From the NCBI GenBank assembly GCA_002305275.1, contig DBQO01000020.1:2963-66962 (forward strand): a DNA stretch of 64,000 nucleotides. Direction: 5' to 3'. A model generated the notes under the pieces. That model was given only the letters and a program-made list of their open reading frames with translations, was not told the origin of the DNA and made no database searches. The first letter of the stretch is position 1; every line of letters begins with the position of its first letter. Below are positions 8,107-56,907 of the stretch, in pieces. Made by a program: the position numbers and the translations under genes. Source of the DNA: Bacteroidales bacterium UBA1392. Lineage in GTDB: Bacteria; Bacteroidota; Bacteroidia; Bacteroidales; UBA932.

Positions 8107-8112
8107 ATTATC

Positions 8113-8415: not shown

Positions 8416-8416
8416 A

Positions 8417-8451
8417 ATAGTATGTAGTGTGTAGTATGTAGTATGTAGTAA
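8417..8451 (+). repeat. heptanucleotide tandem repeat, 5 units (ATAGTAT GTAGTGT GTAGTAT GTAGTAT GTAGTAA)
   Basis: Read directly. Starts 2 nt after the TGA stop and contains no C. The first 26 nt are identical to 31347-31372. Confidence 0.9.
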
Positions 8452-8635
8452 AAGGGATTTAGGAGTTGGGATTTATGGAAAAGGAAGAAAGTTTTGTGAT
8501 TTTGAAATTTTATAACAATCCCACAGGATTTGGAGTCTCACAGAACTCTCTACATAAACCAAAAAATAGTTCCGAACTCATACCTAACTACTAAAAAACT
8601 TACTCATAACTACCGACTATTTACTTGAAACTATA

Positions 8636-8673
8636 AAAATGGGGATCAGTTTGTGATGTGACCCCCATTTTTT
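8636..8673. terminator. bidirectional intrinsic terminator between DUF3467 (+) and the oxidoreductase operon (-)
   Basis: AAAATGGGG...CCCCATTTT stem with an A-tract on the left and a T-tract on the right. Confidence 0.6.
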
Positions 8674-8694
8674 GTACTATTCGTATCTATTCCT

Positions 8695-9237
8695 TTACAA
8701 AATCTCAACTGCCTTCATTCCGATGCTGATTGCCTGCTCATTCATCGGTATCAGACCGTGATGGCGTTCCGGAAGGGACTTCCTGAGCCCTTCGAGGACA
8801 TTAGCCATAGTCACGATTGGCTTGACTTTGAGGTAGGCACCAAGAACAATCATATTGTAAGCTTTGGCATTGCCAAGTTTTGCAGCCTCATCTGCCGCAG
8901 CTATGCGACAAACTTTTATATCTTTCCTTTCGGGATGGCGCGTAATGCCATTAGGATCGTAAATGAGGACTCCTCCCGGCTTTACCCTACTCTCAAACTT
9001 GTCGAGCGACTGCTGATTGAGTATGATTGCAGTGTCAAATCTGCTGAGTATGGGCGAGCTGATCTTATTGTCGCTAAGAATAACGCTCACATTACAGGTG
9101 CCACCACGCATCTCAGGGCCGTATGACGGCATCCAAGTGACTTCCTGATCCTGCATTATGCCTCCATAAGCCAAAATTTTGCCCATAGAGAGGACTCCCT
9201 GTCCTCCGAAACCTGCTATAATAATCTCTTCTTTCAT
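8695..9237 (-). CDS. 2-oxoacid:ferredoxin oxidoreductase, gamma subunit
   Basis: MKEEIIIAGFGGQGV start, typical of gamma subunits. I chose ATG 9237 over the track's TTG 9258. Confidence 0.85.
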   Translation of the reverse strand: MKEEIIIAGFGGQGVLSMGKILAYGGIMQDQEVTWMPSYGPEMRGGTCNVSVILSDNKISSPILSRFDTAIILNQQSLDKFESRVKPGGVLIYDPNGITRHPERKDIKVCRIAAADEAAKLGNAKAYNMIVLGAYLKVKPIVTMANVLEGLRKSLPERHHGLIPMNEQAISIGMKAVEIL

Positions 9238-9274
9238 ATCATCTATTTTATTAATCAAAATAATACGGAGGTTC

Positions 9275-10036
9275 TTAACGATCCTTCAAATCACCAAGGG
9301 GATACTCGGGGAACATATTCTCCTCCATCCATTTATTTGCCTCTACGGGCGACACTTTCCATCCGGAATTACAGGTACTTACCACCTCGATAAATGATGT
9401 TCCTTTGTCCATCATGGAGTTTTCGAAAGCTTTGCGTATAGCTCTCTTGGCTTTGCGTACCGCACCGGGAGTCTGTACGGATTGCCTGGTCACGTAGCAA
9501 GTGCCATCGAGTTGAGCAAGAAGTTCGGTAATTTTTAGAGGGTAGCCGTTGAGCTTAACGTCACGTCCATAAGGGGTTGTGGCTGTCACCTGCCCGATCA
9601 GGGTGGTAGGAGCCATTTGGCCTCCGGTCATGCCGTAGATTGCGTTGTTGATAAAGATGACAACTATATTTTCCCCACGGTTGCAGGCATGCAAAATCTC
9701 GGCAGTACCTATAGAAGCTAGGTCACCGTCTCCCTGATATGTGAAGACATATTTGTCGGGCATCAGGCGTTTGGTGGCAGTTGCAAGTGCCGGAGCGCGT
9801 CCATGTGCAGCTTGCTGCCAGTCTATGTCAAGATAGTTGTAGGCGAACACGGAGCAGCCCACAGGAGAAATACCTATGGTCTTGTCCTGAATTCCCATCT
9901 CCTCAATAACCTCGGCAATAATCTTGTGGACCGTGCCGTGAGAGCAGCCCGGGCAATAGTGCATTACTGCATCCTTAAGTACGGGAGTTTTACCGTAAAC
10001 CTTGTTTTCAGGTTTTATTATATCATTGATCTCCAT
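9275..10036 (-). CDS. 2-oxoacid:ferredoxin oxidoreductase, beta (TPP-binding) subunit
   Basis: 253 aa. CPGCSHG and GDGD...NN TPP-binding motifs. Confidence 0.9.
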   Translation of the reverse strand: MEINDIIKPENKVYGKTPVLKDAVMHYCPGCSHGTVHKIIAEVIEEMGIQDKTIGISPVGCSVFAYNYLDIDWQQAAHGRAPALATATKRLMPDKYVFTYQGDGDLASIGTAEILHACNRGENIVVIFINNAIYGMTGGQMAPTTLIGQVTATTPYGRDVKLNGYPLKITELLAQLDGTCYVTRQSVQTPGAVRKAKRAIRKAFENSMMDKGTSFIEVVSTCNSGWKVSPVEANKWMEENMFPEYPLGDLKDR

Positions 10037-10041
10037 AGTCG

Positions 10042-11124
10042 CTATTTTTTGATTGTTTTGACAAATGCTTCATAAATCTCTTCAGGAGAGGGAATAACAC
10101 CTCCCTGGCGTCCATAGAAGTGTACGGGTACGCGGCCTGCAGCTATCCTGCGTACATCTTCCACCATTTGGCCGGAATTGAGCTCCACGGACATTATAGA
10201 TTTCATCCGGGGTACAAGTGCATCAAGTGCCTTTTCAGGGTAGGGATAGAGAGTGATGGGGCGCAGTACGCCAAGTTTAATGCCATCCTCACGGGCAAGC
10301 TCCACTACATTTTCTGAAATACGGGACATACAGCCGAATGCCACTATAAGATACTCCGCATCTTCAGTCTTATAGGTCTCATATCTGACCTCCTCTGACT
10401 CAATAGTTGCATATTTGTTTTGGAGATGGATGTTGTGGCGCTCCATTATATCTGCATCAAGTGCAAGAGACGTTACTATGTTGCCTGGTCTTGATGCCGG
10501 TTTGCCAAGCGTAGCCCAGGAATCACAGAGTGTTCTTACCTCTTCGTCAGTGCGGCGAGGTTTTGCAGGGCTGAGTTCCACTTTTTCCATCATTTGCCCA
10601 ACAATACCGTCTCCTAGAATCATCACGGGGTTGCGGTATTTGAATGCGAGTTCGAATGATAAATCCACGAAGTCGTACATATCCTGTACGGAAGCGGGAG
10701 CGAGTACAATTGTCCTATAGTCACCGTGACCGCCACCCTTAGTTGCTTGAAAATAGTCACTTTGGCTGGGTTGTATTGTACCCAGACCAGGGCCTCCACG
10801 CATTACATTGACTACCAGACAGGGAAGTTCACATCCTGCAAGGTAGCTTAGTCCTTCGCACATGAGGCTGATGCCGGGGCTGCTGGATGAGGTCATAACC
10901 TTTTTGCCGCAGGAGGCTCCGCCATAGACCATATTGATCGAGGATGTTTCACTCTCAGCCTGGAGTACTACCATACCTGTAGTCTCCCAGGGTTTTTCTT
11001 GCATCAGCGTCTCCATAACCTCCGACTGGGGGGTAATGGGGTAGCCGAAATAGCCGTCGCAGCCGCAGTTTATAGCAGCGTAGGCGATGGCTTCGTTTCC
11101 TTTCATTAAGATCTTTTCTGCCAT
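10042..11124 (-). CDS. 2-oxoacid:ferredoxin oxidoreductase, alpha subunit
   Basis: About 360 aa. N-terminus MAEKILMKGNEAIAYAAI...YPITPQSE. I chose ATG 11124 over the track's GTG 11148. Confidence 0.9.
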   Translation of the reverse strand: MAEKILMKGNEAIAYAAINCGCDGYFGYPITPQSEVMETLMQEKPWETTGMVVLQAESETSSINMVYGGASCGKKVMTSSSSPGISLMCEGLSYLAGCELPCLVVNVMRGGPGLGTIQPSQSDYFQATKGGGHGDYRTIVLAPASVQDMYDFVDLSFELAFKYRNPVMILGDGIVGQMMEKVELSPAKPRRTDEEVRTLCDSWATLGKPASRPGNIVTSLALDADIMERHNIHLQNKYATIESEEVRYETYKTEDAEYLIVAFGCMSRISENVVELAREDGIKLGVLRPITLYPYPEKALDALVPRMKSIMSVELNSGQMVEDVRRIAAGRVPVHFYGRQGGVIPSPEEIYEAFVKTIKK

Positions 11125-11134
11125 ATCTGTAATT

Positions 11135-11356
11135 TTAGATTTTGACACGATAAACGGTTATTACTGCATCCGGACATACGGTAGCGCAGTTGGCGCAGCC
11201 GATGCAGTTATCCGGATTGGCCATATATAAATAATTGTAACCTTTACTATTCACCTCTTTTGCAAGGGCTATAGTGCCGGTTGGACAATTTGGGATGCAT
11301 ACTCCGCATCCTTTGCATTTCTCGGTATCTACCGTGATAGCTCCTTTGATTGCCAT
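11135..11356 (-). CDS. 2-oxoacid:ferredoxin oxidoreductase, delta subunit (2x[4Fe-4S] ferredoxin)
   Basis: 73 aa with two CxxCxxCxxxCP motifs. Confidence 0.9.
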   Translation of the reverse strand: MAIKGAITVDTEKCKGCGVCIPNCPTGTIALAKEVNSKGYNYLYMANPDNCIGCANCATVCPDAVITVYRVKI

Positions 11357-11384
11357 ATACTTTTAAGTTTTATTGGTTTTAAAT

Positions 11385-11540
11385 TTATTTGCCCGAATAA
11401 AAATTGAACCCCTTGGTGACGCCCTCGATGATCGCATGCCATCTGAAAGCAATACCGATAATGCAAATTATGCCTATCCATATAAGTGCCTTTGTGGTGT
11501 AGCTCTGGGCACGGTACCAATCGCCAATTTTTTTAAACAT
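11385..11540 (-). CDS. 51-aa single-TM small protein, below the ORF-track length cutoff
   Basis: My translation: MFKKIGDWYRAQSYTTKALIWIGIICIIGIAFRWHAIIEGVTKGFNFYSGK. The ATG lies 6 nt after the acyl-CoA synthetase stop, and the stop lies 28 nt before the delta-subunit ATG. Confidence 0.5.
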   Translation of the reverse strand: MFKKIGDWYRAQSYTTKALIWIGIICIIGIAFRWHAIIEGVTKGFNFYSGK

Positions 11541-11546
11541 AATTAC

Positions 11547-13601
11547 TTATTTTTCTATTCTAATCCTGGCATCCACTGCCGTAACGCTCTTTTGGTTGCC
11601 CATTAGAGGATTTATATCCATTTCAAATATCTCCGGAGCACAACTGCAAAGAGCAGAGACTCGGCGGATGGTTTCGTTGAAGATGGCTTCATTAACCCCC
11701 TCCTGACCGCGCACACCCTCAATAAGTTTGTAACTCCTAAGTTGGCGGATCATCTCCTTGGCCTCTATGGCAGAGATGGGGGAGATGCCATAAGAAATAT
11801 CTTTAAGTACCTCAATATAGATACCTCCGAGACCGCACATTACCAGATGGCCGAATTTATCTTCCCTCTTGGCTCCAACAAAGAGTTGAGTGCCACTGAT
11901 CATAGGCTGGAGCAGGACTCCGATGCATCCATCTATGCGCATCATACGTTTGTACTCCATTTCGAGAGTGTGGTCGTCGCTGATGTTTAGCACGACTCCA
12001 CCCACATCGCTCTTATGCACGGGACCCACCACCTTCATAACCAGTGGCCAACCTATCTCTCTAGCAGCCTCAATGGCCTTCGAGTAGGTGGAGACCACCA
12101 ATTCTTTCACCCTATTGATGCCTGCCGCATCCAGTATGTCTTGCGTTTTCTCCGGCGAGAGGTATCCATTGTCGCTATTGTCAATAATGCTACGGATTTT
12201 TTCCTTATCCACCGGGGGATTCTCATTGCTGAGAATGGGTTCGAGTGTGTTGGCTATTCTTGCAAAGCAAGAACCGAACATCACCTCTTCGGGGAATGTT
12301 ATTCCTCCTTTGTTTCTAAATTGCTCTATCTCATCTTTGGCATTCACGATAGAGGTAAGGATGGGGAATATGGGCTTTTTACAAACTTTTTGCTTTTCAA
12401 GTATTGTGTCGTATGCGTCGTTACCGGAGACCAGGCCGGGATTGCCGAATATTACCGCCATACTATCCACATCGAAATCATGCTCACAGACATCTATGAT
12501 CTTGCCAAGTTGGGAGGCAGTACCGGTGGCAAGAAAGTCTATTGGGTTGGAGACTGAAGAACCGGGGTAGAGTTCTTTGAGAAGCGCCTTAGCCTTCTCC
12601 CCCTCAAAATGAGGAATTTCTATATCATTGGAAGAGAGCACGTCGGTGAGCATTACGGCAGGACCGCCGGCGTGAGTGATGAGGGCCATCTTACGACCTT
12701 TGACCTTGTTGAACATCAGTATGGCGGCGGTAGTTACAAGTTCCATGCGACTGAAGCATCTGATAATACCGGCCTTACGGAAGAGTGCACTTACAGCCTT
12801 ATCGGGAGAGGCCATAGCACCGGTATGTGAGGATGCGGCACGAGATCCCGCTTCGCTATACCCTGATTTGATAGCTACTACCCTTGCACCCTTACGGTAT
12901 AGGGAATATGCATGTTTAAGAAGCTTCTGAGGATCATTTATGCTTTCGATATAGAGCATCTTGACCGGCGCGCTTTTGCCATGCACATAGGATTGGTCAT
13001 AATACTCGAGCATATCTTCCACTCCGATCTGAGCCGAATTGCCGATGGAAAAAATAGATGCGAACTTCAATCCGAGCTGTATTGCCAGCTCCAGGATAAA
13101 TACGATGGTGGCTCCGGAGCCCGATACGAAATCAATACCTGTAGGGGAGAGTCTTGGAACAGGCTTGATGAAGACTCCTGTATAGGCGGGGGTGATTACT
13201 CCGACACAATTGGGTCCTATAAGTGCTGCTCCTACGTCGTTTGTCATCTCGACGATCCTCCGTTCGTATTCCGCTCCCTCTTTGCCGTCTTCGGCAAATC
13301 CTGCCGAAACTATAATGATGGCTCCGCAGTTTTTTTTGTAGCAAAGCGTTTCAACTGCACTCACACAAAATTGTGCGGGTATGGCAAGAATGGCAAGATC
13401 AACTTCGGGGATCCCATCTATGGTGAGGAATGTTCTGCAGCCCCTGATTTCTCCGGAAGCTTTGGGGTTAACTACGTAAATATTTCCCTGAAACCGTGTA
13501 GAAAGGAGGTTTTCGAGAATAGCTCCCCCGGGCTTGTGGATGTCATCACTACCCCCTACAACGACAATGGTCTTAGGCGAAATCAGCTGTTTTGTGATCA
13601 T
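11547..13601 (-). CDS. ADP-forming acetyl/acyl-CoA synthetase (fused CoA-binding, CoA-ligase and ATP-grasp domains)
   Basis: About 684 aa. N-terminal CoA-binding fold (IVVVGGSDD..KPGG), an internal succinyl-CoA-synthetase-like part, and a C-terminal ATP-grasp. I chose ATG 13601 over the track's TTG 13610. Confidence 0.85.
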   Translation of the reverse strand: MITKQLISPKTIVVVGGSDDIHKPGGAILENLLSTRFQGNIYVVNPKASGEIRGCRTFLTIDGIPEVDLAILAIPAQFCVSAVETLCYKKNCGAIIIVSAGFAEDGKEGAEYERRIVEMTNDVGAALIGPNCVGVITPAYTGVFIKPVPRLSPTGIDFVSGSGATIVFILELAIQLGLKFASIFSIGNSAQIGVEDMLEYYDQSYVHGKSAPVKMLYIESINDPQKLLKHAYSLYRKGARVVAIKSGYSEAGSRAASSHTGAMASPDKAVSALFRKAGIIRCFSRMELVTTAAILMFNKVKGRKMALITHAGGPAVMLTDVLSSNDIEIPHFEGEKAKALLKELYPGSSVSNPIDFLATGTASQLGKIIDVCEHDFDVDSMAVIFGNPGLVSGNDAYDTILEKQKVCKKPIFPILTSIVNAKDEIEQFRNKGGITFPEEVMFGSCFARIANTLEPILSNENPPVDKEKIRSIIDNSDNGYLSPEKTQDILDAAGINRVKELVVSTYSKAIEAAREIGWPLVMKVVGPVHKSDVGGVVLNISDDHTLEMEYKRMMRIDGCIGVLLQPMISGTQLFVGAKREDKFGHLVMCGLGGIYIEVLKDISYGISPISAIEAKEMIRQLRSYKLIEGVRGQEGVNEAIFNETIRRVSALCSCAPEIFEMDINPLMGNQKSVTAVDARIRIEK

Positions 13602-30023: not shown

Positions 30024-31364
30024 ATGGAGTTTTCGGAGAGTCTGTATGACGAAATGCTTGAATGGCTTTTCACACGTTTTCCCTCATATCAGAGAGTAGG
30101 TGATAGGGCTTTTAAGCCCGGTCTGGCCACAATGCGTGAATTCATTTCCCAACTTGGAGAGCCTCAGTCAGCCTACAGTGTAATCCATATAGCCGGCACC
30201 AATGGTAAAGGTTCGGTTTCACACATGACTGCTTCGGCCCTTGCGTGCTGTGGAATGAAGGTGGGACTCTATACTTCTCCTCACCTCAGAGATTTCCGTG
30301 AGAGGATGAAAATCATATCGAAAGGGACGACAGGTTGTTCCTATGAGATGATCTCAAAAGAGGAAGTATTTGCTTTCATGGAGAGATACCGTGACTTCCT
30401 TGATACTTACAACCCCTCATTCTTTGAAATCACCACGGCTATGGCATTTGACTGGTTTCGTAGCAGAGGGGTTGAGTTAGCTGTGATAGAATGCGGGCTG
30501 GGGGGCCGTCTGGACTCCACAAATGTGGTAACTCCATTGCTCTCGGTGATTACCAATATAGGATTGGAGCATCGGGAATATCTTGGTCACACATTGGAAG
30601 AAATAGCTCGTGAAAAAGCGGGTATCATCAAGAGAGGGGTACCTGCACTTATAGGAGAGCGCCAGCCGGAGACAAGTAAGGTCTTTGAAGAGATCGCTGC
30701 TGAGGTGGCCTCTTCGGGACTCTTTTTTGCCGAGGAACTTCCACTTTTCTTGCCTTTGTCCCCTGAAGAAATAGACCTCAAAGGAGATTACCAGCAGCGC
30801 AATCTTCGCACCGTTTCTGCCATCTTTTCATTATTAATTGGAAAAGGATTGCTCCATGTCGCGGATAGCGGGTGTGATATTGCAGCGTTGTCTTACGGAG
30901 TCTCAAATGCCGCCACCTTTACCGGTCTGCATGGAAGATGGGAGACTCTTAGAAAGAGGGCAGATTCAGGCGGTATTGCAGGTAAGGCTCCTATAATATG
31001 TGATACTGCCCACAATGCCCACGCTTTGCGGTGGGTCAGGGAGCAGATTGACAAGATTTCTTGTGATTATGACAATATTTTCCTTATATTGGGAGTGGTT
31101 GCGGACAAGGATGTGGATGGCATAGCTTCCTATCTGCCCCGGGATGTCAACTTTATTTTGACCAATAGTGAAGGGGAGAGGGCTTTGCCTGCTGCAAAAC
31201 TGGCTGACAGGCTTTCGGATCACGGCATAAACGGTCGTATAACCCATTCAGTCAGTGAGGCGCTGGAGATGGCGGATTCATTGGCAGGCGAAGAGGATCT
31301 GATATTCATTTGCGGCAGCAATTTTGTCGTGGCAGAAGTGTTGGAGATAGTATGTAGTGTGTAG
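30024..31364 (+). CDS. folC: bifunctional folylpolyglutamate synthase/dihydrofolate synthase
   Basis: 446 aa, Mur-ligase fold (HIAGTNGKGS P-loop, ECGLGGRLDSTN). The last residues and the TAG stop lie inside the heptamer array. Confidence 0.9.
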   Translation: MEFSESLYDEMLEWLFTRFPSYQRVGDRAFKPGLATMREFISQLGEPQSAYSVIHIAGTNGKGSVSHMTASALACCGMKVGLYTSPHLRDFRERMKIISKGTTGCSYEMISKEEVFAFMERYRDFLDTYNPSFFEITTAMAFDWFRSRGVELAVIECGLGGRLDSTNVVTPLLSVITNIGLEHREYLGHTLEEIAREKAGIIKRGVPALIGERQPETSKVFEEIAAEVASSGLFFAEELPLFLPLSPEEIDLKGDYQQRNLRTVSAIFSLLIGKGLLHVADSGCDIAALSYGVSNAATFTGLHGRWETLRKRADSGGIAGKAPIICDTAHNAHALRWVREQIDKISCDYDNIFLILGVVADKDVDGIASYLPRDVNFILTNSEGERALPAAKLADRLSDHGINGRITHSVSEALEMADSLAGEEDLIFICGSNFVVAEVLEIVCSV

Positions 31365-31486
31365 TATGTAGTGTGTAGTGTGTAGTGTGTAGTGTGTAGT
31401 TTGTAGTGTGTAGTTTGTAGTGTGTAGTTTGTAGTGTGTAGTGTATAGTGTGTAGTGTATAGTGTATAGTGTGTAGTATGTAGTAA
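31347..31486 (+). repeat. heptanucleotide array, 20 units of [G/A]TAGT[G/A/T]T
   Basis: I counted it unit by unit. The 140 nt contain no C. TAG recurs every 7 nt, so all three forward frames are closed within 21 nt, while the complementary strand is open in all frames. Confidence 0.95.
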
Positions 31487-31524
31487 GGAGTGTTGCGGGT
31501 TACGAGGTGAGGGTTCGAGGAAGT

Positions 31525-31669
31525 TTAGAGTAATTAGAGTAGGTAGAGATAGGTAGAGTAAGTAGAGTAAGTAGAGTAAGTATAGTAGGTAGAGTAGGTA
31601 TAGTAGGTATAGTAGGTATAGTAGGTATAGTAGGTAGAGTAAGTAGAGTAAGTAGAGTAAGTAGAGTGA
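31525..31669 (+). repeat. nonanucleotide array, about 16 units (GTAGAGTAA / GTAGAGTAG / GTATAGTAG)
   Basis: I counted it unit by unit. There are 13 exact-length units from 31553 to 31669 plus three degenerate leading units. It contains no C. Confidence 0.9.
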
Positions 31670-31751
31670 GGAACGGACTAAGTAAGTAATAAAAATTATA
31701 AGTAAGTGATAATAAGTTTTAAGTAAATAATATTTCATATAATAGACAGTA

Positions 31752-36087: not shown

Positions 36088-37374
36088 TTACCTAAAAAAA
36101 TTTTCCACTTTTGTGATTACCCCTTCGTCTGATGCCATGGCAATAAGGGAGGGCTTTAGGTAGACTACCTTGTGGTCGCGTTTGAAGCGCTCTTCTCCTC
36201 CGCCCGTGATATTAAGCATGGTAATCGCATCTTTTGGCATTTTCCCTGCATTGAAAGCATTGATCATGCCTTTCATGGCAACAGCTGATGCCGGATGTAT
36301 GTCAATCCCCTCAGTACGCAGGAATAGTGCCTGCATCTCCTTGATATCATTGTTGTCAGCAAGTTCCATATCTCCTCCGGCATCACTCATTGCATCATAG
36401 AGACCTCCGGCTACTGCGTAAGGGGGTCTTCTATTTGAAAGTACCTTGGCATCGATTGCAATTGCCTTGATGCGTGCCTCTTCGTCATCCATCGGCAGAA
36501 GAGTCTTGCTGCCTGCCTTCCAGGCATCATACATAGGAGTAAAGGGGATGTTTTGTGAAGGGAACAGTTTCATTTTATGGTTGCCGAAACGGCCATCCTC
36601 TATCAGTCGGAGATTGGCCTCCCAGGCAGCTATGGCTCCTGTGCCGCTTCCGATTGACTGGAAATAGCAATCGGGAATACGTCCGATTACCTCGGCCGCA
36701 GAAAGGACTGTTGTTGCCATACCATCCCTACGGGCCACATTCTTTGCTCCGCCTTCGGCAAAAAACTTCTCTGAGGTACACACTTTATCGGCCAGGGCAA
36801 TTGCATCGTAATAGTCACTGCCTTTCGGTGAACAGATAAGTTGTACACAGTCGTTAATGGGTTTTTCAAACCACAAAGCATCGATATTGTCCTCCGGGAC
36901 ACTCAGCAACAGGGGAATATTATTTTCAGAGCAGACCTTGGCAAAGGATCTTGCCGTATTACCTGCTGATGCCACTACCAATATTCCGCTCTTATTAGGT
37001 GAGAGCCTGCCACATACGGAATAGGCCTCCGTCTCCTTGAATGAACCTGTAGTCATATATGCATCCTTCTCCGGCCAGTAACCTGAAAAGGCAATATAGA
37101 GGTTGGAAAGGCCGAGATGCGAAGCAAGAGCCTCGCTTTTATATGTACGGGTTGCGGATGAGCCTTTGAGAGTCCGGCTTATGGGAAGCCAGTCGGCAAA
37201 ACGGTATATACCCTCTTCCTGACTTCCAAAGTCAATCTGTTTCTTTTCGTAAATGGCTCTGATAAGTGAAGGTTCCGTGCCCTGCGGGTCTGCAAGTAGC
37301 CAACCTGTGTCCTCAAATTGGCGGCCTGTGGCCACGTTTTCAAGCATATACTTTGTGGGTTTGAATTTCTTCAT
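36088..37374 (-). CDS. threonine-synthase-fold PLP enzyme, cysteate synthase-like
   Basis: 428 aa. PLP-lysine context TGSFKETEA. The block TYKSEALASHLGLSNLYIAFSGYWPE matches what I remember of archaeal/Bacteroidota cysteate synthase (TIGR03844) rather than canonical ThrC. Not verified by search. Confidence 0.55.
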   Translation of the reverse strand: MKKFKPTKYMLENVATGRQFEDTGWLLADPQGTEPSLIRAIYEKKQIDFGSQEEGIYRFADWLPISRTLKGSSATRTYKSEALASHLGLSNLYIAFSGYWPEKDAYMTTGSFKETEAYSVCGRLSPNKSGILVVASAGNTARSFAKVCSENNIPLLLSVPEDNIDALWFEKPINDCVQLICSPKGSDYYDAIALADKVCTSEKFFAEGGAKNVARRDGMATTVLSAAEVIGRIPDCYFQSIGSGTGAIAAWEANLRLIEDGRFGNHKMKLFPSQNIPFTPMYDAWKAGSKTLLPMDDEEARIKAIAIDAKVLSNRRPPYAVAGGLYDAMSDAGGDMELADNNDIKEMQALFLRTEGIDIHPASAVAMKGMINAFNAGKMPKDAITMLNITGGGEERFKRDHKVVYLKPSLIAMASDEGVITKVENFFR

Positions 37375-37462
37375 ATCTCTCTTATTTTATTACACATTAC
37401 TTTATCTTTTCATTCTTTCCTTTGCTTCTAAATACTTTCCACTCCATACTCCTCAATCAAAA
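37375..37462 (-). repeat. C-poor, heptamer-periodic spacer (minus-strand sense: TGAGGAG TATGGAG TGGAAAG TATTTAG ...)
   Basis: Read directly on the minus strand downstream of the TAG stop at 37463-37465. The periodicity is degenerate. Confidence 0.5.
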
Positions 37463-39298
37463 CTATTCCTCTTCTTCAATCAGACTTTCGGCAATAACTT
37501 GTGCAAAGTCAACTACCTTAATATCCGATTGCTTGCTAAATGTCTTCATACATAGCGGGCATGCGGTCACAATCCTGTCGGGGGAGTTGGCAGTAAGGTT
37601 GCGAATGGAATTCTCCGTAATGCGTCCTCTCTCTTCATGTGTGAGGGTAAGACTGCCCAGAGAACCACCACAGCAGATGCTCTCTTTTCGCTCTTTAGTT
37701 GCCGGCACCAACTCAGCAACCCTGGATAGAGCATTGCGGGGTGCATCATATATACCGCATCCACGCCCAAGTTCACAGGGATCGTGATATACGTACCTGA
37801 GCTCCCGTTTTCTCAATTTTATGACCCCTTCAGCGGCCAGTTGCTCGAAATACTCGGTGTAGTGCATCACCTGCACTCCTTCCAGATTGTAATCTTCCTT
37901 GAATATCCTATAGCAGATAGCACAGGATACCAACAGTATGGGTACACCGCTCTCCTTAATGATCCGGGTATTTTTCTCTATCAGTTTCTTCGCTTCCTCG
38001 GTGCGACCTGAGAGCAGTAAAGGTCTTCCACAGCAGACGGTCCCTTGCGAATCCATCAGAGTAAAATCTATATCTGCGTTTGTCAGCACTTTCTGCACCG
38101 ATTGTGAAATCGTCGGCGTCAAAGAGCTCATACAGCCTGCATAATAGAGAACCTTCTCTCCACCTACCGAAATTGCGGAGGTCAGCGCTCCATTAGGGAG
38201 CTTGTCGAGATAGCTGAAGTCCTGTTTGATATTGTAGGGCTGTTGCTTGCGGAGTGCCAGTCGTAGGTCTATTGCCGATATGTTGATGGGGCATAGGACC
38301 GAACATTTGCCACACATCAGGCACTTGTCGGCAATCGCCAGCGCCCGTGGCTGGTTTCTTCTTTTGAGTTGACGTATGTAGTAGACGGTGGTATTCTTGA
38401 GTCCCGCCTTATCAACACTCATGGGGCAGGCATCCAGACAAACACCGCAGCTCGGACAGGTGTAGAGCTCAGCAAGAGCATACCCCTTGCGTGGCCTCCG
38501 TACCCTGAGTCCCGCATTTTTTAGTGGGATCAAGAGTATCTCCGCGGGAATATGCATGTATCGGGTAAATGGAAGTACCATCATAAAGGTACCCAATGCG
38601 ATTGAGTAGGCCCACCAGGCTATAGTGAAATTTTCAGGTTTGCTGAGGATGCTGGCAAAGAGCCAGTTGACAGGTACGGTGAGAAAACTGCCTCCGCCCA
38701 CACCTGCGGTAAATCCTTCGGCTATCAGCCTAAGGGGAAATATAGCCCAGAGTGAGTAGAGTCCTACCCGATCCAGCAGAGTTAGTTTGGTAGTTCTCCG
38801 CATGCCCATCAATTTGGAACGGAAACGCTTGATAATGGCGAGAATTATACCGCTAAGCACTACCAATAGGAAAAAGTCCATCAGGAAAAAGAGGAGCGAG
38901 CCCTTGAGGGTCGTACTCTCCACTGCCATGAAGTAGCGGAAAAATATAGGATAATAAAACAATCCGCCCCTTTCGGGAATATAGAGGAATGTCTCAATGT
39001 GACCGATGACAATCAGCATAAACCAGCCGAAGGCAATGCTGGAGTGCATATATCCCAGCACCTTGTTGCGCTTCCATAACTTTACGTGCAAAAGGGAGTC
39101 GTAAAACAAGTCACGGAAATTCTTTGCAATTATTACAGGATTGACAAGAGATTTGTAGAGCTTGATGCGGTCTGCACGCTCAAGCTGGACAATGATTTTA
39201 ATCAGACCTATGATGCACCATAGGATTACGAAAATCATTCCTATCATGAAAGGGAGCACAAAGTAGTCGAACCCCGATATGAACCTCTCTCTCATCAT
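37463..39298 (-). CDS. membrane-anchored Fe-S/CCG-domain oxidoreductase (fusion of an HdrE/DsrM-like membrane domain with an HdrD/DsrK-like domain)
   Basis: 611 aa. The N-terminal ~250 aa carry about 5-6 hydrophobic helices with conserved His residues. Two 4Fe-4S motifs follow (CPSCGVCLDACP, CLMCGKCSVLCP). Then come two canonical CCG domains (C..VCCGRPL..CAIC and C..ICCGGSLG..CPLC). Confidence 0.8.
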   Translation of the reverse strand: MMRERFISGFDYFVLPFMIGMIFVILWCIIGLIKIIVQLERADRIKLYKSLVNPVIIAKNFRDLFYDSLLHVKLWKRNKVLGYMHSSIAFGWFMLIVIGHIETFLYIPERGGLFYYPIFFRYFMAVESTTLKGSLLFFLMDFFLLVVLSGIILAIIKRFRSKLMGMRRTTKLTLLDRVGLYSLWAIFPLRLIAEGFTAGVGGGSFLTVPVNWLFASILSKPENFTIAWWAYSIALGTFMMVLPFTRYMHIPAEILLIPLKNAGLRVRRPRKGYALAELYTCPSCGVCLDACPMSVDKAGLKNTTVYYIRQLKRRNQPRALAIADKCLMCGKCSVLCPINISAIDLRLALRKQQPYNIKQDFSYLDKLPNGALTSAISVGGEKVLYYAGCMSSLTPTISQSVQKVLTNADIDFTLMDSQGTVCCGRPLLLSGRTEEAKKLIEKNTRIIKESGVPILLVSCAICYRIFKEDYNLEGVQVMHYTEYFEQLAAEGVIKLRKRELRYVYHDPCELGRGCGIYDAPRNALSRVAELVPATKERKESICCGGSLGSLTLTHEERGRITENSIRNLTANSPDRIVTACPLCMKTFSKQSDIKVVDFAQVIAESLIEEEE

Positions 39299-39302
39299 AA
39301 TG

Positions 39303-39629
39303 TCAGATCTTGTATATTTTACATATTGAAAGGATCAGATGCCTCGTATTGATGCCTCTGGGGCAGACGATATGGCACTTGCCGCAAAGCATGCAGGACT
39401 TGAGCTGGGGAAGAAGATCCTTTTCGCATCCGCGTTGAAGGCTGAGCAGTACTTTTCTGAGATTGACATCTGTGAAAACACCTGCGGTACAACTTGCAGC
39501 GCAAGATCCACATGAGATACATTTCAATGCATCAGGTTCCATGGCACACAATTCATCGAATAGATGCATATTGGCATCATCGATATCAAGTGTAGAACTC
39601 GGTGTAAGATTATATCCGAAATCTATCAT
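39303..39629 (-). CDS. HdrC-like 2x[4Fe-4S] ferredoxin-domain protein
   Basis: 108 aa with CISCGSCAASC and CMLCGKCHIVCP. The ATG overlaps the upstream stop (TAATG). Confidence 0.75.
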   Translation of the reverse strand: MIDFGYNLTPSSTLDIDDANMHLFDELCAMEPDALKCISCGSCAASCTAGVFTDVNLRKVLLSLQRGCEKDLLPQLKSCMLCGKCHIVCPRGINTRHLILSICKIYKI

Positions 39630-40642
39630 TAAACCTCTTGTTTGAAATAGTGATCAATGGCCATAGCTGCCGCTCTGGCTTCATTGAGGGTCTCAGGAAT
39701 GGTTTTGGGACCGGTGGCAGCACCGGCAAAAAATATCCCCTTGCTATGGCTCTCAGTCGTACGGAAGAGCATATCCCGGGGCATGAAAAAACCATCTTCT
39801 CCGAGATGTACCCCGGTCATGGAGGCAATTTCGCGGTTTTCGTCATTAGGGGACATACCGGCCATAAGTACCAGAAGGTCCATAGTGACACGTATCGGTT
39901 TGCCGATAAGTGTATCTTCCGCCTTAACGACAAGTCTTCCCTCAATATTTTCAGAGACCTCCGAAACCCTGCCACGAACAAAGAGTATCCCATATTTGCG
40001 CTGGGCATTGAGGTAGAGATCCTCATATTTCCGGCCAAACATCCTCAAGTCCATATAGAAACAGTAAACGGTGGCGTCAGGATAGAGTTCCTTCATCTCG
40101 CAGGCCTGTTTGATGGCAGTAGCACAGCACACTTTAGAGCATTGGCGGTTGCCCGCTTTTTCATCTCTGGAGCCCACACAGTGGACAAAACCTATAACCT
40201 TCGGATCTTTTATCCTCGGATCTTCTCCCGTATTGAAGAAATCCTCGAGATCAGCATTTGTAATAACGTGGTTATATATGCCGTATCCGTATTCCTCTTT
40301 CTTCTCAGCCGGGAACAAAGAAAATCCTGTGGTAAAAAGAAGGGCATCTGCCTGTATCGAAATGCCATTGGAGCAGATTGCTACATATAGATGTTTGAGC
40401 TTGTTGATTGAGACTATATCCGTATCGGTAAACCATTTGATCCCATCCATATCGGAGGTAAGGGAGTTGAGAAGCTCCTCGGTAGATTCCCCATCCGGAA
40501 AGAGTTTATGCCACTTGGCAAGATGGCCTCCAAGGTGGGACTCTTTTTCGATAAGAATTGGAGTGTGGCCGAAATCGCGTATTTTGCGAGAAGCTTCTAT
40601 GCCGGCAGGACCTCCGCCAATTATAAGTACATTTCGTTTCAT
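39629..40642 (-). CDS. short HdrA-like FAD/[4Fe-4S] flavoprotein
   Basis: 337 aa. Dinucleotide fold IIGGGPAGIEAS. HdrA cluster signature CVGSRDEKAGNRQCSKVCC (CxGxRDx8CSxxCC). Confidence 0.8.
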   Translation of the reverse strand: MKRNVLIIGGGPAGIEASRKIRDFGHTPILIEKESHLGGHLAKWHKLFPDGESTEELLNSLTSDMDGIKWFTDTDIVSINKLKHLYVAICSNGISIQADALLFTTGFSLFPAEKKEEYGYGIYNHVITNADLEDFFNTGEDPRIKDPKVIGFVHCVGSRDEKAGNRQCSKVCCATAIKQACEMKELYPDATVYCFYMDLRMFGRKYEDLYLNAQRKYGILFVRGRVSEVSENIEGRLVVKAEDTLIGKPIRVTMDLLVLMAGMSPNDENREIASMTGVHLGEDGFFMPRDMLFRTTESHSKGIFFAGAATGPKTIPETLNEARAAAMAIDHYFKQEV

Positions 40643-40658
40643 TGAGTCATCTATTATA

Positions 40659-41729
40659 TCAACAACACTTGATGTTCATGGGAAATTCCGGCATTTTGAG
40701 GATTTTACCCCCACTGCCTTTATATTTATCTTCTTTGTTGTATTTTATTCCCATCTTATCCAGCAGGGGCTCTACTGCCACCTGATGCATCTGGAGTCCG
40801 AGATCCCAGGGATCATATCCCAACACCAGACCTGCAACCTCTTCATAGGTAAATACAGGAATGCCATAACCGTTTTCGCCATAGGTTTTACCGGTCTGTT
40901 CGGCGATCACATATTGCCATCTGTCCATGAAATAGGGGCACCCCGGACAGTTGGTAATGATCATGTCGGGCTTGTAAGGCTCCATCGATTCAAATTTCTT
41001 GTGAGTGTTGGACATCGAGTAACCGCGATTGGCTTTGACCAGATATTGCCTGAAACCAAATCCGCAGCAATGTCTGCGCTCCGGATAATCTATCACTTCT
41101 CCACCCCAGGAATCTATCATACCGGCAAGTACATAGGGATATTCCGCACCACCTACACCCTTTGAGGGGAACATTTTGGAATAGTGGCATCCTATATGCT
41201 CCACAACCCTCAGCGGCTCGCCTGTAAATTTATTGACAAGACGGTGCTTCGCCCTGGCAGCTATCTCGTTGCGAAATTTGTAAATGATGTCACTGGCGTG
41301 AGCAAGATATTCAGGCTTTTGCAATTCGCGTCTGCAAGATTTCCAGAGGTGCTCCCTTATTTTATCTTCAAGATCGGGAAAAGTCCTCCAGTCTTCCAGT
41401 ACCTCAGTGTAGAGACCAAATGAGGTAATGCAGGAACAAACGTAATTTTTGTAGCCGTGTTCAGCCATAAGAGCAAATTGGCGGGCTATGATAGTCATCA
41501 TTGTTTCCTGCGGTAGTGCCTCGGAGTGGTAGGCAATGCCTCCGCAAGTGGTATGATGTTCGGTTTCGAAAAAATCTTTACCGAGTTTGTTGCGAACTAT
41601 GTCGAGGAATGCCACTTCCGATCCCGGAAAAAAACTTTGGCGTATGCAACTTCTTACATAAAACCAGTGGTCATCGGGAATCTCTTTCTGGTAGTCCGAC
41701 CATATTTTCTGTTTCCCCTGAAATATCAT
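40659..41729 (-). CDS. HdrB-like CCG-domain protein
   Basis: 356 aa. The C-terminal CCG domain is canonical (GCHYS...HCCGFG...NCPGC). The N-terminal one is degenerate (SCIRQ...TTCGG...VCSC). Confidence 0.75.
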   Translation of the reverse strand: MIFQGKQKIWSDYQKEIPDDHWFYVRSCIRQSFFPGSEVAFLDIVRNKLGKDFFETEHHTTCGGIAYHSEALPQETMMTIIARQFALMAEHGYKNYVCSCITSFGLYTEVLEDWRTFPDLEDKIREHLWKSCRRELQKPEYLAHASDIIYKFRNEIAARAKHRLVNKFTGEPLRVVEHIGCHYSKMFPSKGVGGAEYPYVLAGMIDSWGGEVIDYPERRHCCGFGFRQYLVKANRGYSMSNTHKKFESMEPYKPDMIITNCPGCPYFMDRWQYVIAEQTGKTYGENGYGIPVFTYEEVAGLVLGYDPWDLGLQMHQVAVEPLLDKMGIKYNKEDKYKGSGGKILKMPEFPMNIKCC

Positions 41730-41745
41730 TTCGTTGCTTTTAAAA

Positions 41746-42441
41746 TTAACGGTTTAGATGATCCTTCTCTGTCTCCTCAAATGCCTTTTTTTCATATTCG
41801 TCGTAGGGGAGACCCATCTCTTTTGCTTTTATCTTAGAGGCCTCTTCTATTATCTCCATACGGCGCGTAGCGCCGGTCTGGTCAAATATCGCCTTGAGTT
41901 CTGCAAGCGATTCATCGGGTATCTTTCTTAAAATACCGGGTCCCTTTCCGTCGAAATTGGCACCGAGGCGCTCGTAGACCTCCTCCATGTTTTCATTCAC
42001 CCATTTGCCCGTCAGGCCATATTCAGGGTGTTCGCTATAGTGAAATGTTCGCGGATAGACGCAATAGCCATAGTTGAGTATATTGTTCTGCATACGGCGG
42101 GTCAATGGGAGCATTTGTCGTCCCTTTTCGCTTTCCACGAAATAACCCATTTCAATTGAGAGCGATCTTAGAGCCATTACCACAAGTCCGGGAGCATTGC
42201 GTCTGGGACAGCGTGTCACGCAGGACATGCACTCGCCACAGTACCATATCTGTTCACCCTTAAGTAATTCTTCTATTTGAGCGTCATCCTGGCTCTGGAC
42301 AATGTTGACTATGTTTTTAGGATTGTATTTGTAGAACTCGGCTGCCGGACAGATCGCAGTACAGGTACCGCAGTTGATACAGGCTTTCAAACCCTCTTTA
42401 ATGCGATAATCTTGGATCAATTTTTCGTATAGTTTGCCCAT
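41746..42441 (-). CDS. HdrC-like 2x[4Fe-4S] protein
   Basis: 231 aa with CINCGTCTAICP and CGECMSCVTRCP. Confidence 0.75.
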   Translation of the reverse strand: MGKLYEKLIQDYRIKEGLKACINCGTCTAICPAAEFYKYNPKNIVNIVQSQDDAQIEELLKGEQIWYCGECMSCVTRCPRRNAPGLVVMALRSLSIEMGYFVESEKGRQMLPLTRRMQNNILNYGYCVYPRTFHYSEHPEYGLTGKWVNENMEEVYERLGANFDGKGPGILRKIPDESLAELKAIFDQTGATRRMEIIEEASKIKAKEMGLPYDEYEKKAFEETEKDHLNR

Positions 42442-42463: not shown

Positions 42464-42471
42464 CAAAGTTA
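42464..42471 (-). promoter_or_regulatory. candidate -7 promoter box for the Hdr-like cluster
   Basis: The minus strand reads TAACTTTG, 22 nt upstream of ATG 42441, in the 77-nt gap after carB. Confidence 0.4.
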
Positions 42472-55509: not shown

Positions 55510-56907
55510 TTAAAAATAGAGATCTCTAATACCCTGTTTTACCATGTTAAGTCTTTGTGCAACAAGATTCTTTCTCTGACCGGCAGGCATTTTAGCCACT
55601 TCCTTTTCAATCAGTTCATATCCCACCTTCTTTGTCTCCTCAGAAGCGTAATCCTCGAGATACTCTGCAAGTGTGATAATGGCATTGGGGGTACAGAAAT
55701 TTCCAATGAATCCCGGTATGGCAAATTCCATAAAATGCTCTCCGGTACGTCCCAAACGGTAGCATGAGGTACAGAAACTGGGAATATATTCTCTGGTAAG
55801 AAGCCATCTGATCACCTGATCGAGGTCGCGGGTATCTCCAATCCGGAACTGCTCTTTTTCCAGTTTCTGCTCATATTCCTCTTTTTGGTAGCCGCCTATC
55901 TCCAGTTTTGTGCCTGCATCTATTTGGGATACTCCGAAATCTATCACATCGTTCCTTACCTGACTGCTTTCACGGGCGGTCATAATTAGTCCCGTATAAG
56001 GTACGGAGAGACGCAGAATGGCCACCAGCATCTTAAACTGCTCGTCCGTCACGCGCCAGGGGAGATCCAAATCCATACCATGGGCGGGCTGGATGCGGGG
56101 AAAACTGATGGTGTGAGGACCCACCCCGTGAGTCTCCTTGAGATGGATTGCGTGAGCTACGAGTCCCAATACCTCGAAGCGCCAGTCGTAGAGTCCGAAC
56201 AGGGCTCCGATACCCATATCATCAATTCCCGCCTCAAATGCGCGGTCCATAGCGTGAAGACGCCAGAAGTAGTCGCCCTTGTGGGTGTTTTTAGGGTGTA
56301 CCCTCGCATAAGTTTCCTGGTGATAGGTCTCCTGAAATACCTGAAAAGTGCCGATGCCTGCCTCTTTTATGATCTTATAGCCCTCTACTTCTTGAGGGGC
56401 GGCGTTGATGTTCACACGGCGGATCTCTCCATTGCCTACTTTAGTCTGATAGCAGAGTCTTACCGTATGCGCAATGAACTCGGGTGAGTACATAGGGTGC
56501 TCTCCGTATACCAGAATCAAGCGCTTGTGACCTATATTTTCAAGGTTTATTACCTCATTGACCAATTCCTGGTCGCTAAGTGTTTTACGAACTGCGGTGC
56601 GGAGAGAGCGGCGGAAACCGCAATATTTACAATCATTGATGCAGTGGTTACCGATATAAAGGGGTGCGAAGAGTACTATTCTGTTGCCGTAAATAGCCCT
56701 TTTGAGTTCTCTTGCAGTTTCGTAAAGTTCCTCTTTCATCTCATCGGATTCTATTGCGAGCAGTTGGGCAGTCTCCGAGAGGGTCAGGGGCTCTTTTGCC
56801 TTGCTTTTGGCGAAAATGGCTCTAATTGCCTCCTTATCCTCCTTTGTCTCCCTTATAAGGGAATGGATAAGATCTTCGTCAATAAAATTTTTGTATTTAT
56901 TTTCCAT
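55510..56907 (-). CDS. hydG: [FeFe]-hydrogenase maturase HydG (radical SAM tyrosine lyase)
   Basis: 465 aa. CINDCKYC radical-SAM motif and the HydG-specific C-terminal cluster motif (FCTSCYRLGRTGEHFM...FCTPNA). Too long for ThiH. Confidence 0.75.
   Translation of the reverse strand: MENKYKNFIDEDLIHSLIRETKEDKEAIRAIFAKSKAKEPLTLSETAQLLAIESDEMKEELYETARELKRAIYGNRIVLFAPLYIGNHCINDCKYCGFRRSLRTAVRKTLSDQELVNEVINLENIGHKRLILVYGEHPMYSPEFIAHTVRLCYQTKVGNGEIRRVNINAAPQEVEGYKIIKEAGIGTFQVFQETYHQETYARVHPKNTHKGDYFWRLHAMDRAFEAGIDDMGIGALFGLYDWRFEVLGLVAHAIHLKETHGVGPHTISFPRIQPAHGMDLDLPWRVTDEQFKMLVAILRLSVPYTGLIMTARESSQVRNDVIDFGVSQIDAGTKLEIGGYQKEEYEQKLEKEQFRIGDTRDLDQVIRWLLTREYIPSFCTSCYRLGRTGEHFMEFAIPGFIGNFCTPNAIITLAEYLEDYASEETKKVGYELIEKEVAKMPAGQRKNLVAQRLNMVKQGIRDLYF

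Follow-up and report, generated by a model that had tools for sequence, protein, structure and literature searches.

Among described systems, the closest to the locus analysed here are the sulfur-oxidising heterodisulfide reductase (Hdr)-like complexes known as sHdr, in which sHdrB1 is the proposed catalytic subunit of the oxidation of sulfane sulfur to sulfite, and which are reported always to be accompanied by LbpA and by sulfur transferases such as TusA, DsrE and rhodanese (PMC11094781). A second type of sHdr, with the composition shdrC1B1AHB3-etfAB-emo, is proposed to transfer electrons to menaquinone (PMC11094781). Electrons also reach menaquinone in mycobacterial EtfD, in whose structure a series of clusters connects to haem b, with H78 and H241 as ligands of the haem, and to the quinone (PMC13083937). 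We analysed a stretch of 64,000 nucleotides (nt), hereafter the window, from Bacteroidales bacterium UBA1392 (assembly GCA_002305275.1, contig DBQO01000020.1, positions 2,963 to 66,962 of the forward strand), in which five genes encoding Hdr-like proteins precede a gene for cysteate synthase (cysS) in an apparent operon. Our proposal, to which we give somewhat less than an even chance, is that the five genes encode a quinone-linked, sHdr-like complex making sulfite for the cysteate synthase. The genes of the locus are the following.

41746-42441, minus strand: hdrC1, HdrC1-like subunit with predicted 2x[4Fe-4S], 231 amino acids (aa)
40659-41729, minus strand: hdrB1, HdrB1-like putative catalytic subunit with the CCG domain, 356 aa
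39629-40642, minus strand: hdrA, short HdrA-type flavoprotein with predicted flavin adenine dinucleotide (FAD) and one [4Fe-4S], 337 aa
39303-39629, minus strand: fdx, predicted 2x[4Fe-4S] ferredoxin at the HdrC2 position, 108 aa
37463-39298, minus strand: TM-hdrD, fusion of about five transmembrane (TM) helices with 2x[4Fe-4S] and two CCG domains, 611 aa
37375-37462, minus strand: intergenic spacer between the 611-aa gene and cysS, 88 nt
36088-37374, minus strand: cysS, pyridoxal phosphate-dependent cysteate synthase, 428 aa
34346-36070, plus strand: SulP/STAS anion transporter, 574 aa, convergent on cysS with a gap of 17 nt

An earlier note on this DNA, made from its letters alone, had described these genes, and the layout it gave was fully reproduced in our map of open reading frames (ORFs): six minus-strand ORFs occupy 36088-42441 with the coordinates and lengths listed above and with intergenic gaps of 16, 16, -1, 4 and 88 nt, the start of fdx overlapping the stop of hdrA (TAATG), and the SulP/STAS gene converges on cysS at 17 nt. 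The domains attributed to the subunits were likewise recovered with Pfam, NCBIfam and topology predictions, which give two HdrC-like Fer4 proteins, an HdrB-like CCG protein, a short HdrA and a TM-HdrD fusion with about five TM helices. One detail needs amending: the spacing in the cysteine motif of HdrA, read as x8, is x7.

Judged by its sequence, the last gene of the series is a genuine cysteate synthase and not a threonine synthase, as the earlier note had suspected of this ThrC-fold gene. Its product scores 455.3 bits against the cysteate synthase model TIGR03844 (cutoff 324.9) and 33.8 bits against the threonine synthase model TIGR00260, and it aligns with PDB entry 9K3C over 427 residues at 62% identity (E 1.4e-174). 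This entry was deposited as a cysteate synthase and originates from Alistipes, as indicated by a 100% match and by relatives at 84-87% named 'cysteate synthase [Alistipes sp.]'; Alistipes is the genus where sulfonolipid synthesis was characterised (PMC9304779, PMC11211663). The cysteate made here may be destined for sulfonolipids or for another product. Neither CFAT/SulA nor ketocapnine reductase was found in the window or in any locus examined, the sequence of SulA not having been used as a query. A coenzyme M-like pathway was considered and rejected, since no comDE or other coenzyme M (CoM) genes occur near any locus.

The five-gene arrangement is not a chance juxtaposition. When genomes, one per species, were searched with an alignment of the 611-aa protein, 80 loci were recovered at identities of 55-92%, all from uncultured Bacteroidales (Cryptobacteroides and Egerieisoma; metagenome-assembled genomes from rumen, gut and digesters). 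The gene order hdrC1-hdrB1-hdrA-fdx-TM-hdrD is intact in every related locus where it could be assessed (72/72), and cysS lies directly downstream on the same strand in 53 of the 74 species-level loci. The gaps between TM-hdrD and cysS lie between -4 and 237 nt, the median being ~12 (seven are 4-nt overlaps, and most relatives have values from -4 to ~25 nt). These short distances argue for co-transcription more strongly than the 88 nt of the window do, and the hdr genes and cysS together form an apparent operon. In four further loci, cysS is on the same strand but displaced by 3.4-7 kb; the displacement in L009, L010 and L017 (e.g., L010:12126-15263) corresponds to an opposite-strand cassette of two genes, encoding a C10 peptidase with a Spi-inhibitor domain and a 424-aa protein of no known kind, which shifts cysS by 3.4-4.3 kb.

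The adjacency noticed in a single genome is therefore conserved among relatives (53/74 species-level loci), and it extends to more distant metagenome lineages in which the TM-HdrD protein is 50-54% identical to that of the window. The module loci with an adjacent cysS have upstream neighbours of 15 different families, and from the persistence of the linkage across all of them we conclude that it is selected and not inherited as synteny. The other recurrent neighbours of the module are all housekeeping genes (MscS, RlmD, QueA, PyrD and similar), so that cysS is its sole functionally coherent conserved neighbour. Where cysS is absent, the flank holds esterases, a peptidase cassette or unrelated genes, with no hidden sulfur relay or alternative partner.

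In its C1-B1-A core, the module does resemble sHdr. As a reference we used a genuine type I shdr operon of Hyphomicrobium (locus L089), retrieved with the sHdrA sequence of PDB entry 6TJR, which has the order DsrE, sHdrC1, sHdrB1, sHdrA, sHdrH, sHdrC2, sHdrB2, a hypothetical gene and LbpA, with TusA, a SoxT-like gene and Sox genes nearby. In BLASTP searches against this locus, HdrC1 has its best match in sHdrC1 (24.6% identity, 89.7 bits; next sHdrC2, 40.8 bits), HdrB1 in sHdrB1 (27.4% over 340 aa, 115 bits; next sHdrB2, 50.8 bits), HdrA in sHdrA (33.7%, 216 bits; no other match) and the 108-aa ferredoxin, weakly, in sHdrC2 (31%, 39 bits; next sHdrC1, 34.3 bits); the 611-aa protein has no BLAST match to sHdrB2. 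These best matches are reciprocal and positionally consistent, the order C1-B1-A being common to both systems and being followed in both by a second arm of ferredoxin and CCG proteins.

The individual subunits keep the residues expected of their cofactors. HdrC1 matches Fer4_8 (E 7.9e-11) and has eight invariant cluster cysteines, along with invariant C127 and H138; the small ferredoxin matches Fer4_9 (E 2.2e-8). HdrA has a Pyr_redox_2/HdrA core with the motif C-x-G-x-R-D-x7-C-S-x2-C-C, and C155, C168, C172, C173 and C194 are invariant. Of the PDB entries, 6TJR, the sHdrA of Hyphomicrobium denitrificans, matches it best and aligns over the full length at 35% identity (E 2.7e-65); methanogen HdrA aligns solely to residues 94-329. 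None of the Hdr-like proteins of the module reaches the cutoff of any curated equivalog in NCBIfam: the scores against the methanogen Hdr equivalogs and their cutoffs are 258/1100, 138/450 and 85/350, and HdrC1 obtains 85 bits with the HdrC models, below their cutoffs. LutABC, glycolate oxidase (GlcF), GlpC and TfrB were rejected as identities for these proteins, their HMM matches being weak, partial and far below cutoffs.

HdrB1 is the putative catalytic subunit. It contains the CCG domain (Pfam), with a degenerate N-terminal site of three cysteines, a canonical C-terminal site of five, and a flexible C-terminal tail ending in ...KCC. Its AlphaFold2 (AF2) model, with a confidence score (pLDDT) of 86, matches HdrB 5ODC_B with a TM-score of 0.87 and a root-mean-square deviation of 2.6 A. 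At the N-terminal site, both HdrB1 and sHdrB1 have a single cysteine where the canonical site has the CC pair, and C-x-TSFG-x-Y where it has CxxC, within a shared signature 'KSC ... (S/T)C(T/G) ... C-x-TSFG-x-Y', whereas sHdrB2 and methanogen HdrB are canonical. Because sHdrB1 is the proposed catalytic subunit, we count this match of the three-cysteine site in favour of an oxidative, sulfite-forming reaction. We count in the same direction the fact that HdrB1 is the most conserved subunit of the module (81% mean column identity). The family is narrow, with 64 of 1.84 billion representatives at E <= 1e-30, and its nearest full-length kin outside the core clade are found in Williamwhitmania-type genomes (66% identity) and in Altiarchaeales (~44%), with methanogen-type HdrB coming next.

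The tail of HdrB1 (window 40659-40685) follows the pattern LPxxLKC[CF], with the penultimate cysteine present in 98% of the clade and missing in Williamwhitmania and Altiarchaeales. A role of this cysteine as a swinging arm was considered and dropped as unsupported: within the clade the residue is present regardless of whether cysS is adjacent, and the tail is disordered in the AF2 prediction.

The 611-aa protein consists of about five TM helices, followed by a Fer4 region for 2x[4Fe-4S] and by two canonical, HdrD-like CCG domains. All eight cysteines of the cubane clusters and all ten CCG cysteines are invariant, as are H71, H85 and H249 of the TM domain, Williamwhitmania and Altiarchaeales included (H100 is not). 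The predicted topology places H85 at TM2 and H249 at TM5, both at the cytoplasmic ends of their helices, in positions that mirror the haem-b ligands H78 and H241 of EtfD. The best PDB sequence match is also EtfD (9OJN), over the CCG region only (E 1.6e-12), and the same structure is the top and only full-length match in Foldseek, albeit a geometrically weak one (TM-score ~0.3 on a low-confidence model). More specific models score far below their cutoffs (DsrK 49 vs 400, TmcB 39 vs 735, HmcF 24 vs 750, and TfrB also far below). The earlier note had suggested a membrane, possibly quinone-linked, anchor. The helices and the three invariant histidines agree with it, and from these histidines we infer that the protein may bind haem b and exchange electrons with menaquinone; a known family for the TM domain was not recovered.

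We propose that the five proteins would form one membrane-bound redox complex on the plan of sHdr. The short HdrA, probably a dimer, would stand at the centre, with HdrC1 and HdrB1 as one arm and the 108-aa ferredoxin and the 611-aa protein as the other. Reduced sulfur, either sulfide or sulfane/persulfide sulfur, would be oxidised to sulfite at the unusual cluster site of HdrB1, and the electrons would pass through HdrC1 to the FAD and [4Fe-4S] of HdrA, then to the ferredoxin, to the 611-aa protein with its cubane and non-cubane clusters, to haem b and finally to menaquinone, after which fumarate reductase could re-oxidise the menaquinol. The cysteate synthase, made from the same transcript, would immediately use up the sulfite (O-phosphoserine + sulfite -> L-cysteate + phosphate), which would let a strict anaerobe make a sulfonate in a sulfide-rich, sulfite-poor habitat. 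The potentials of the HSO3-/HS- couple (~-116 mV) and of menaquinone (~-74 mV) make the six-electron oxidation of sulfide slightly exergonic, and the reaction would be pulled by fumarate reduction and by the consumption of sulfite. A bolder version of the proposal, which we hold to be possible but doubtful, is that the module represents a third sHdr-like type: an anabolic sulfide/sulfane-to-sulfite oxidase of strict anaerobes, wired to menaquinone through a fused HdrD/cytochrome-b protein, dispensing with the lipoate carrier and the TusA/DsrE relay, and feeding the synthesis of cysteate and, from it, of sulfonolipids or other sulfonates in abundant gut, rumen and digester Bacteroidales.

The surroundings of cysS in other lineages bear on what the module delivers. 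In several distant lineages (L096, L097, L098, L118, L122 and L125) the operon consists of marR, the five hdr genes, cysS and, in some, sulP, and this MarR-headed operon sits between carB and a block of thiolase and lysine-aminomutase genes. In sister lineages (L109, at 7742-13015, L110 and L115) the same neighbourhood has marR, a gene for an FNT channel, cysS, sulP and eamA, encoding an EamA exporter. The genes shared by the two variants are orthologous (identities of 56-65% for MarR, 65-73% for cysS, 73-76% for SulP and 72-80% for the thiolase), and the FNT protein passes only the general cutoff of its family (TIGR00790, 246 bits vs 232). Since the Hdr module and the FNT channel alternate in the slot between marR and cysS, their simplest common denominator is the delivery, or the removal, of a small inorganic anion used by the cysteate synthase. 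The swap of cassettes fits a role of both in delivering such an anion to this enzyme. MarR homologues 38-46% identical to those of the distant lineages also occur on the opposite strand, downstream of cysS, at L045:13348-13785, L069:14098-14517 and L082:15145-15564, at distances of ~1 kb in L069 and ~2 kb in L082.

An anion transporter is a further partner of cysS. The 574-aa protein of the window has Sulfate_transp and STAS domains and passes TIGR00815 (403.8 vs a cutoff of 380.45), and it stays below the cutoffs of more specific SulP models (DauA 506 vs 614, BicA 294 vs 880). Genes for SulP adjoin cysS convergently in the window group and in L012, and co-directionally in L081, L096, L097, L100, L109, L110 and L115. 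SulP recurs next to cysS whether the Hdr module is present or not, and is not specific to the module. In L001, a near-identical strain whose other proteins of the region are 98-100% identical to those of the window, the SulP ORF (L001:13312-14790) has 492 aa vs 574 in the window and was missed by the gene caller, which suggests that it is truncated or decaying.

If the module removed an anion instead of delivering it, menaquinol could drive the reduction of toxic sulfite, entering through SulP or otherwise, to sulfide or dispose of it in another way, under co-regulation with cysS. The earlier note had already allowed for such detoxification. An FNT channel in the same slot could export a small anion, SulP stands beside cysS in the window, and the sulfite/sulfide and menaquinone couples are close enough in potential that concentrations could set the direction. 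We nevertheless think sulfite removal or homeostasis improbable. Known sulfite reductases have sirohaem or multihaem sites, and none is present according to Pfam and NCBIfam; most loci with the module and cysS lack a nearby transporter to bring sulfite in; a detoxifier translationally coupled upstream of a sulfite consumer is less parsimonious than a supplier; and the kinship with sHdrB1 points to the oxidative direction.

Sulfite could also be delivered by reduction. The module would then cleave S-S bonds in thiosulfate, S-sulfocysteine or another S-sulfonate, releasing a thiol or sulfide together with sulfite for the cysteate synthase, and this would account for the linkage to cysS and for the FNT swap as well as an oxidase does. 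The 611-aa protein keeps the ten canonical CCG cysteines of catalytic HdrB/HdrD, without the Thr and His substitutions of EtfD, the C-terminal site of HdrB1 is canonical, and the SulP beside cysS is an oxyanion transporter that recurs there. We rate reductive cleavage as quite unlikely all the same, because the conversion of thiosulfate to sulfide and sulfite lies at ~-400 mV, far below menaquinol, and because most module loci have no SulP. The same low standing applies to the accompanying suggestion on electron supply, that menaquinol and/or a donor at the HdrA flavin would provide the electrons, possibly through bifurcating or confurcating arms, with SulP importing the oxyanion: the two arms around a flavin do recall bifurcating Hdr, but the ferredoxin-type domains found in bifurcating HdrA are missing from the short HdrA, and the vicinity has no genes for an electron-donor module.

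Against the sulfite-forming oxidase that we favour stand several observations, the first group of which concerns its generality. Williamwhitmania-type genomes carry the same five genes, tightly packed and with 40-66% identity per subunit, without cysS, and so do Altiarchaeales, at 34-46% identity. The module lacks cysS in its flank in 17 of the 74 species-level loci; conversely, in a search based on cysS, the module is upstream in only 11 of 55 assessable metagenome loci, and the characterised cysS of Alistipes has no module. The module thus predates its link to cysS and is more widely distributed than this link, and cysS in turn extends beyond the module. The Williamwhitmania-type module (L083:9291-14281; also L084 and L085) is followed by a 134-aa ORF without Pfam match, and this lineage has cultured relatives. 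In Candidatus Altiarchaeales WOR_SM1 (L086:4393-15685), a NifX-like gene (Nitro_FeMo-Co) lies between hdrC and hdrB, with an additional hdrC-hdrB pair upstream; two nitrogenase-like Oxidored_nitro genes are found just downstream on the opposite strand, and no PALP gene is present.

This distribution speaks for a general membrane electron module like EtfD or HdrDE, exchanging electrons between a thiol/disulfide or organic substrate and the quinone pool and unrelated to sulfite, whose adjacency to cysS would be a historical accident or a loose co-regulation. That the module occurs without cysS in Williamwhitmania-type genomes, in Altiarchaeales (beside nitrogenase-like genes) and in part of the clade itself is easily understood on these terms, as is the absence of any curated equivalog among the subunits, and EtfD, the closest structural relative of the membrane subunit, serves beta-oxidation. 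We hold this alternative to be unlikely, as the adjacency to cysS, with its gaps of -4 to ~25 nt, survives at least 15 upstream contexts and persists where identity has fallen to ~50-55%, cysS is the only conserved neighbour that is not housekeeping, orthologous MarR genes head the hdr-cysS and FNT-cysS operons alike, and no Etf, dehydrogenase or other donor gene lies alongside. In the literature searched, we found no homologous cluster that had been assigned to a non-sulfur substrate.

The second group of contrary observations concerns the likeness to sHdr and the chemistry. Subunit identities are only 25-34%. Neither tblastn with the proteins of L089 nor Pfam scans of ~15-20 kb on each side, searches that do not extend to whole genomes, detected sHdrH, LbpA, TusA or DsrE at any module locus, the window included, which agrees with the absence of LbpA, DsrE and TusA reported in the earlier note and leaves the delivery of sulfur without explanation; the genes for lipoate assembly are likewise missing from the module, and sulfur transferases and LbpA are absent also among its recurrent neighbours. 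The nearest relatives of HdrB1 outside the Bacteroidales are archaeal, from Altiarchaeales and then Methanomassiliicoccales, and its scores against methanogen HdrB are about equal to that against sHdr. The production of sulfite by sHdr rests, to our knowledge, on genetics and not on an in-vitro assay. FNT proteins are known to carry formate, nitrite, hydrosulfide and lactate; we know of no demonstration for bisulfite, which would be a new substrate. In the membrane subunit, the TM domain alone has no Pfam or NCBIfam match at E <= 10, including no cytochrome-b family, and the AF2 model, built on a shallow alignment, is poor (pLDDT 60). Of the conditions named in the earlier note as refuting its link, all those examined turned out in favour of the link. 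The two central suggestions of the note survive in part: the likeness to sHdr holds for the C1-B1-A core and not for the four accessories or for close identity, and the supply of sulfite to cysteate synthase is favoured by the identity of cysS, the conserved linkage and the short gaps in relatives, and weakened by the occurrence of each without the other.

The oxidation of reduced sulfur for cysteate synthesis would matter for several reasons. Gut, rumen and anaerobic digesters contain much sulfide and little sulfite. Where anaerobes obtain, in situ, the sulfite that they need for making sulfonates has been stated to be unclear (PMC6286981), and the module is a genetically linked candidate for the supplier, which makes a recognised gap in anaerobic sulfur metabolism testable. 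The literature searched contains no link between an Hdr-like complex and cysteate synthase or sulfonolipids in bacteria and no description of the module in Bacteroidales or Altiarchaeales; the papers in it that name both cysteate synthase and Hdr all concern methanogens. sHdr-like enzymes would be extended from dissimilatory sulfur lithotrophy to biosynthesis, to a membrane-fused architecture and to an unexpected phylum and lifestyle. Sulfonolipids of gut Bacteroidota are bioactive, with a reported action on TLR4 and a correlation with inflammatory bowel disease (PMC11525784), and control over the supply of their precursor is accordingly of practical interest. The swap of Hdr and FNT cassettes under one MarR is a ready-made comparative system and suggests a possible new substrate for FNT channels. 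If the proposal is true, the module shared with Altiarchaeales could be an ancient and general answer to the question of where anaerobes grown on sulfide obtain sulfite, and the oxidation of sulfide might feed fumarate respiration. The carriers are very abundant gut and rumen bacteria, and the finding stays a genomic one, with real counter-evidence as to its generality.

The flanks of the operon, over ~15-20 kb on each side, are made of housekeeping genes (purL, ppdK, ispG, relA, ligA and peptidases in Pfam scans), with carB and carA directly upstream of hdrC1 and a gap of 77 nt between carB and hdrC1. Two matches to Bacteroidota promoter motifs fall within the region.

42464-42471, minus strand: TAACTTTG, Bacteroidota -7-type promoter motif in the 77 nt between carB and hdrC1, ~23 nt before the ATG of hdrC1
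37458-37465, minus strand: TAGTTTTG, TAnnTTTG match at the head of the 88-nt spacer, sharing bases with the TAG stop codon of the 611-aa gene

The earlier note had seen no TAnnTTTG box in the 88-nt gap; the match TAGTTTTG does exist there. Relatives whose gaps are long have no counterpart of it, and across the window the motif is no commoner than chance predicts (46 occurrences vs 42 expected), from which we conclude that it is probably meaningless, and an internal promoter at this site was dropped for want of conservation. TAACTTTG is better placed and is a candidate promoter of the operon, and only a candidate given the same chance frequency window-wide. On the minus strand of the 88-nt spacer no terminator-like site was found, the scans for sigma-70 promoters and terminators being at background, and an Rfam scan of the operon region, spacer included, found no riboswitch or other RNA.

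Three features lie apart from these subjects. In the Cryptobacteroides-type loci, a PlsC-like acyltransferase gene (weak PF01553 match; 27 loci, e.g., L073:14226-15398) recurs on the opposite strand, ~2.3 kb past the 611-aa gene in the downstream direction; it may encode an acyltransferase for lipids or reflect mere conserved synteny. Between a Mur-ligase-like gene and an M19 dipeptidase, the window has C-poor tandem arrays at 31348-31732 (TAGTGTG x19.6, TAGAGTAGG x15.7 and a 21-mer x2.6), with a local GC skew of up to 0.92. At 55510-56907 on the minus strand, between relA and a BrkB-family gene, lies a gene for a 465-aa radical SAM protein with a BATS domain (HydG/ThiH/BioB-like).

The cysS of the window is the last gene of an Hdr-like operon, whereas that of Alistipes is surrounded by genes for polyamines and for histidine utilisation and has no Hdr-like module in the 9 kb around it; further cysteate synthases for comparison are those of Chryseobacterium and Capnocytophaga, which produce sulfonolipids, and of Methanosarcinales, where the enzyme belongs to the CoM pathway. 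With methanogen HdrABC (5ODC) the module shares the HdrB fold, the dicluster ferredoxin of HdrC type and the thioredoxin-reductase-like core of HdrA with its C-x-G-x-R-D...C-S-x2-C-C motif. However, methanogen HdrA has ~650 aa, with N-terminal, inserted and C-terminal ferredoxin domains for bifurcation, whereas the HdrA described here is half as long and has none of them; methanogen HdrB has two canonical CCG sites, unlike HdrB1 with its degenerate three-cysteine N-terminal site; and there is no metabolism of CoM and coenzyme B here. The 611-aa protein resembles EtfD (9OJN), EMO, HdrDE and DsrMK in having about five predicted TM helices, then 2x[4Fe-4S] and then two CCG domains, in a single chain. 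It differs from EtfD in that the CCG sites of the latter are non-catalytic through Thr and His substitutions whereas both of its own are of the canonical catalytic HdrB/HdrD type, and in the partner, as EtfD has Etf and no etfAB gene was found at any module locus.

The comparison with sHdr is the closest. The module shares with type I the short HdrA of ~340 aa with FAD and one [4Fe-4S], in addition to the gene order. In place of sHdrC2-B2 it has the 108-aa ferredoxin and the membrane-fused HdrD-like protein; HdrB1 lacks the N-terminal extension of ~90 aa of sHdrB1 and has five cysteines at its C-terminal site vs four; and the host belongs to a strictly anaerobic, fermenting lineage and not to the sulfur lithotrophs, with the module tied to a biosynthetic gene. 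By published description only, type II is similar in having a C1-B1-A core, a C2/B2-type fusion protein and, as the exit for electrons, an HdrD-like quinone reductase in the membrane, and different in having EtfAB, sHdrH and a separate sHdrB3. In the module, the fused C/B unit and the anchor are one polypeptide, both of whose CCG sites are fully canonical; sHdrB3, according to its description, can bind only one non-cubane cluster. Given the narrow family of HdrB1 and these substantial differences, we regard the module as belonging to neither described type of sHdr and as forming a family that is sister to the sHdr core. What appears to be new, judging from the genes and their order, is the combination of an sHdr-like core with a membrane-fused second arm, free of the lipoate and sulfur-relay accessories and linked in an operon to a biosynthetic consumer of sulfite.

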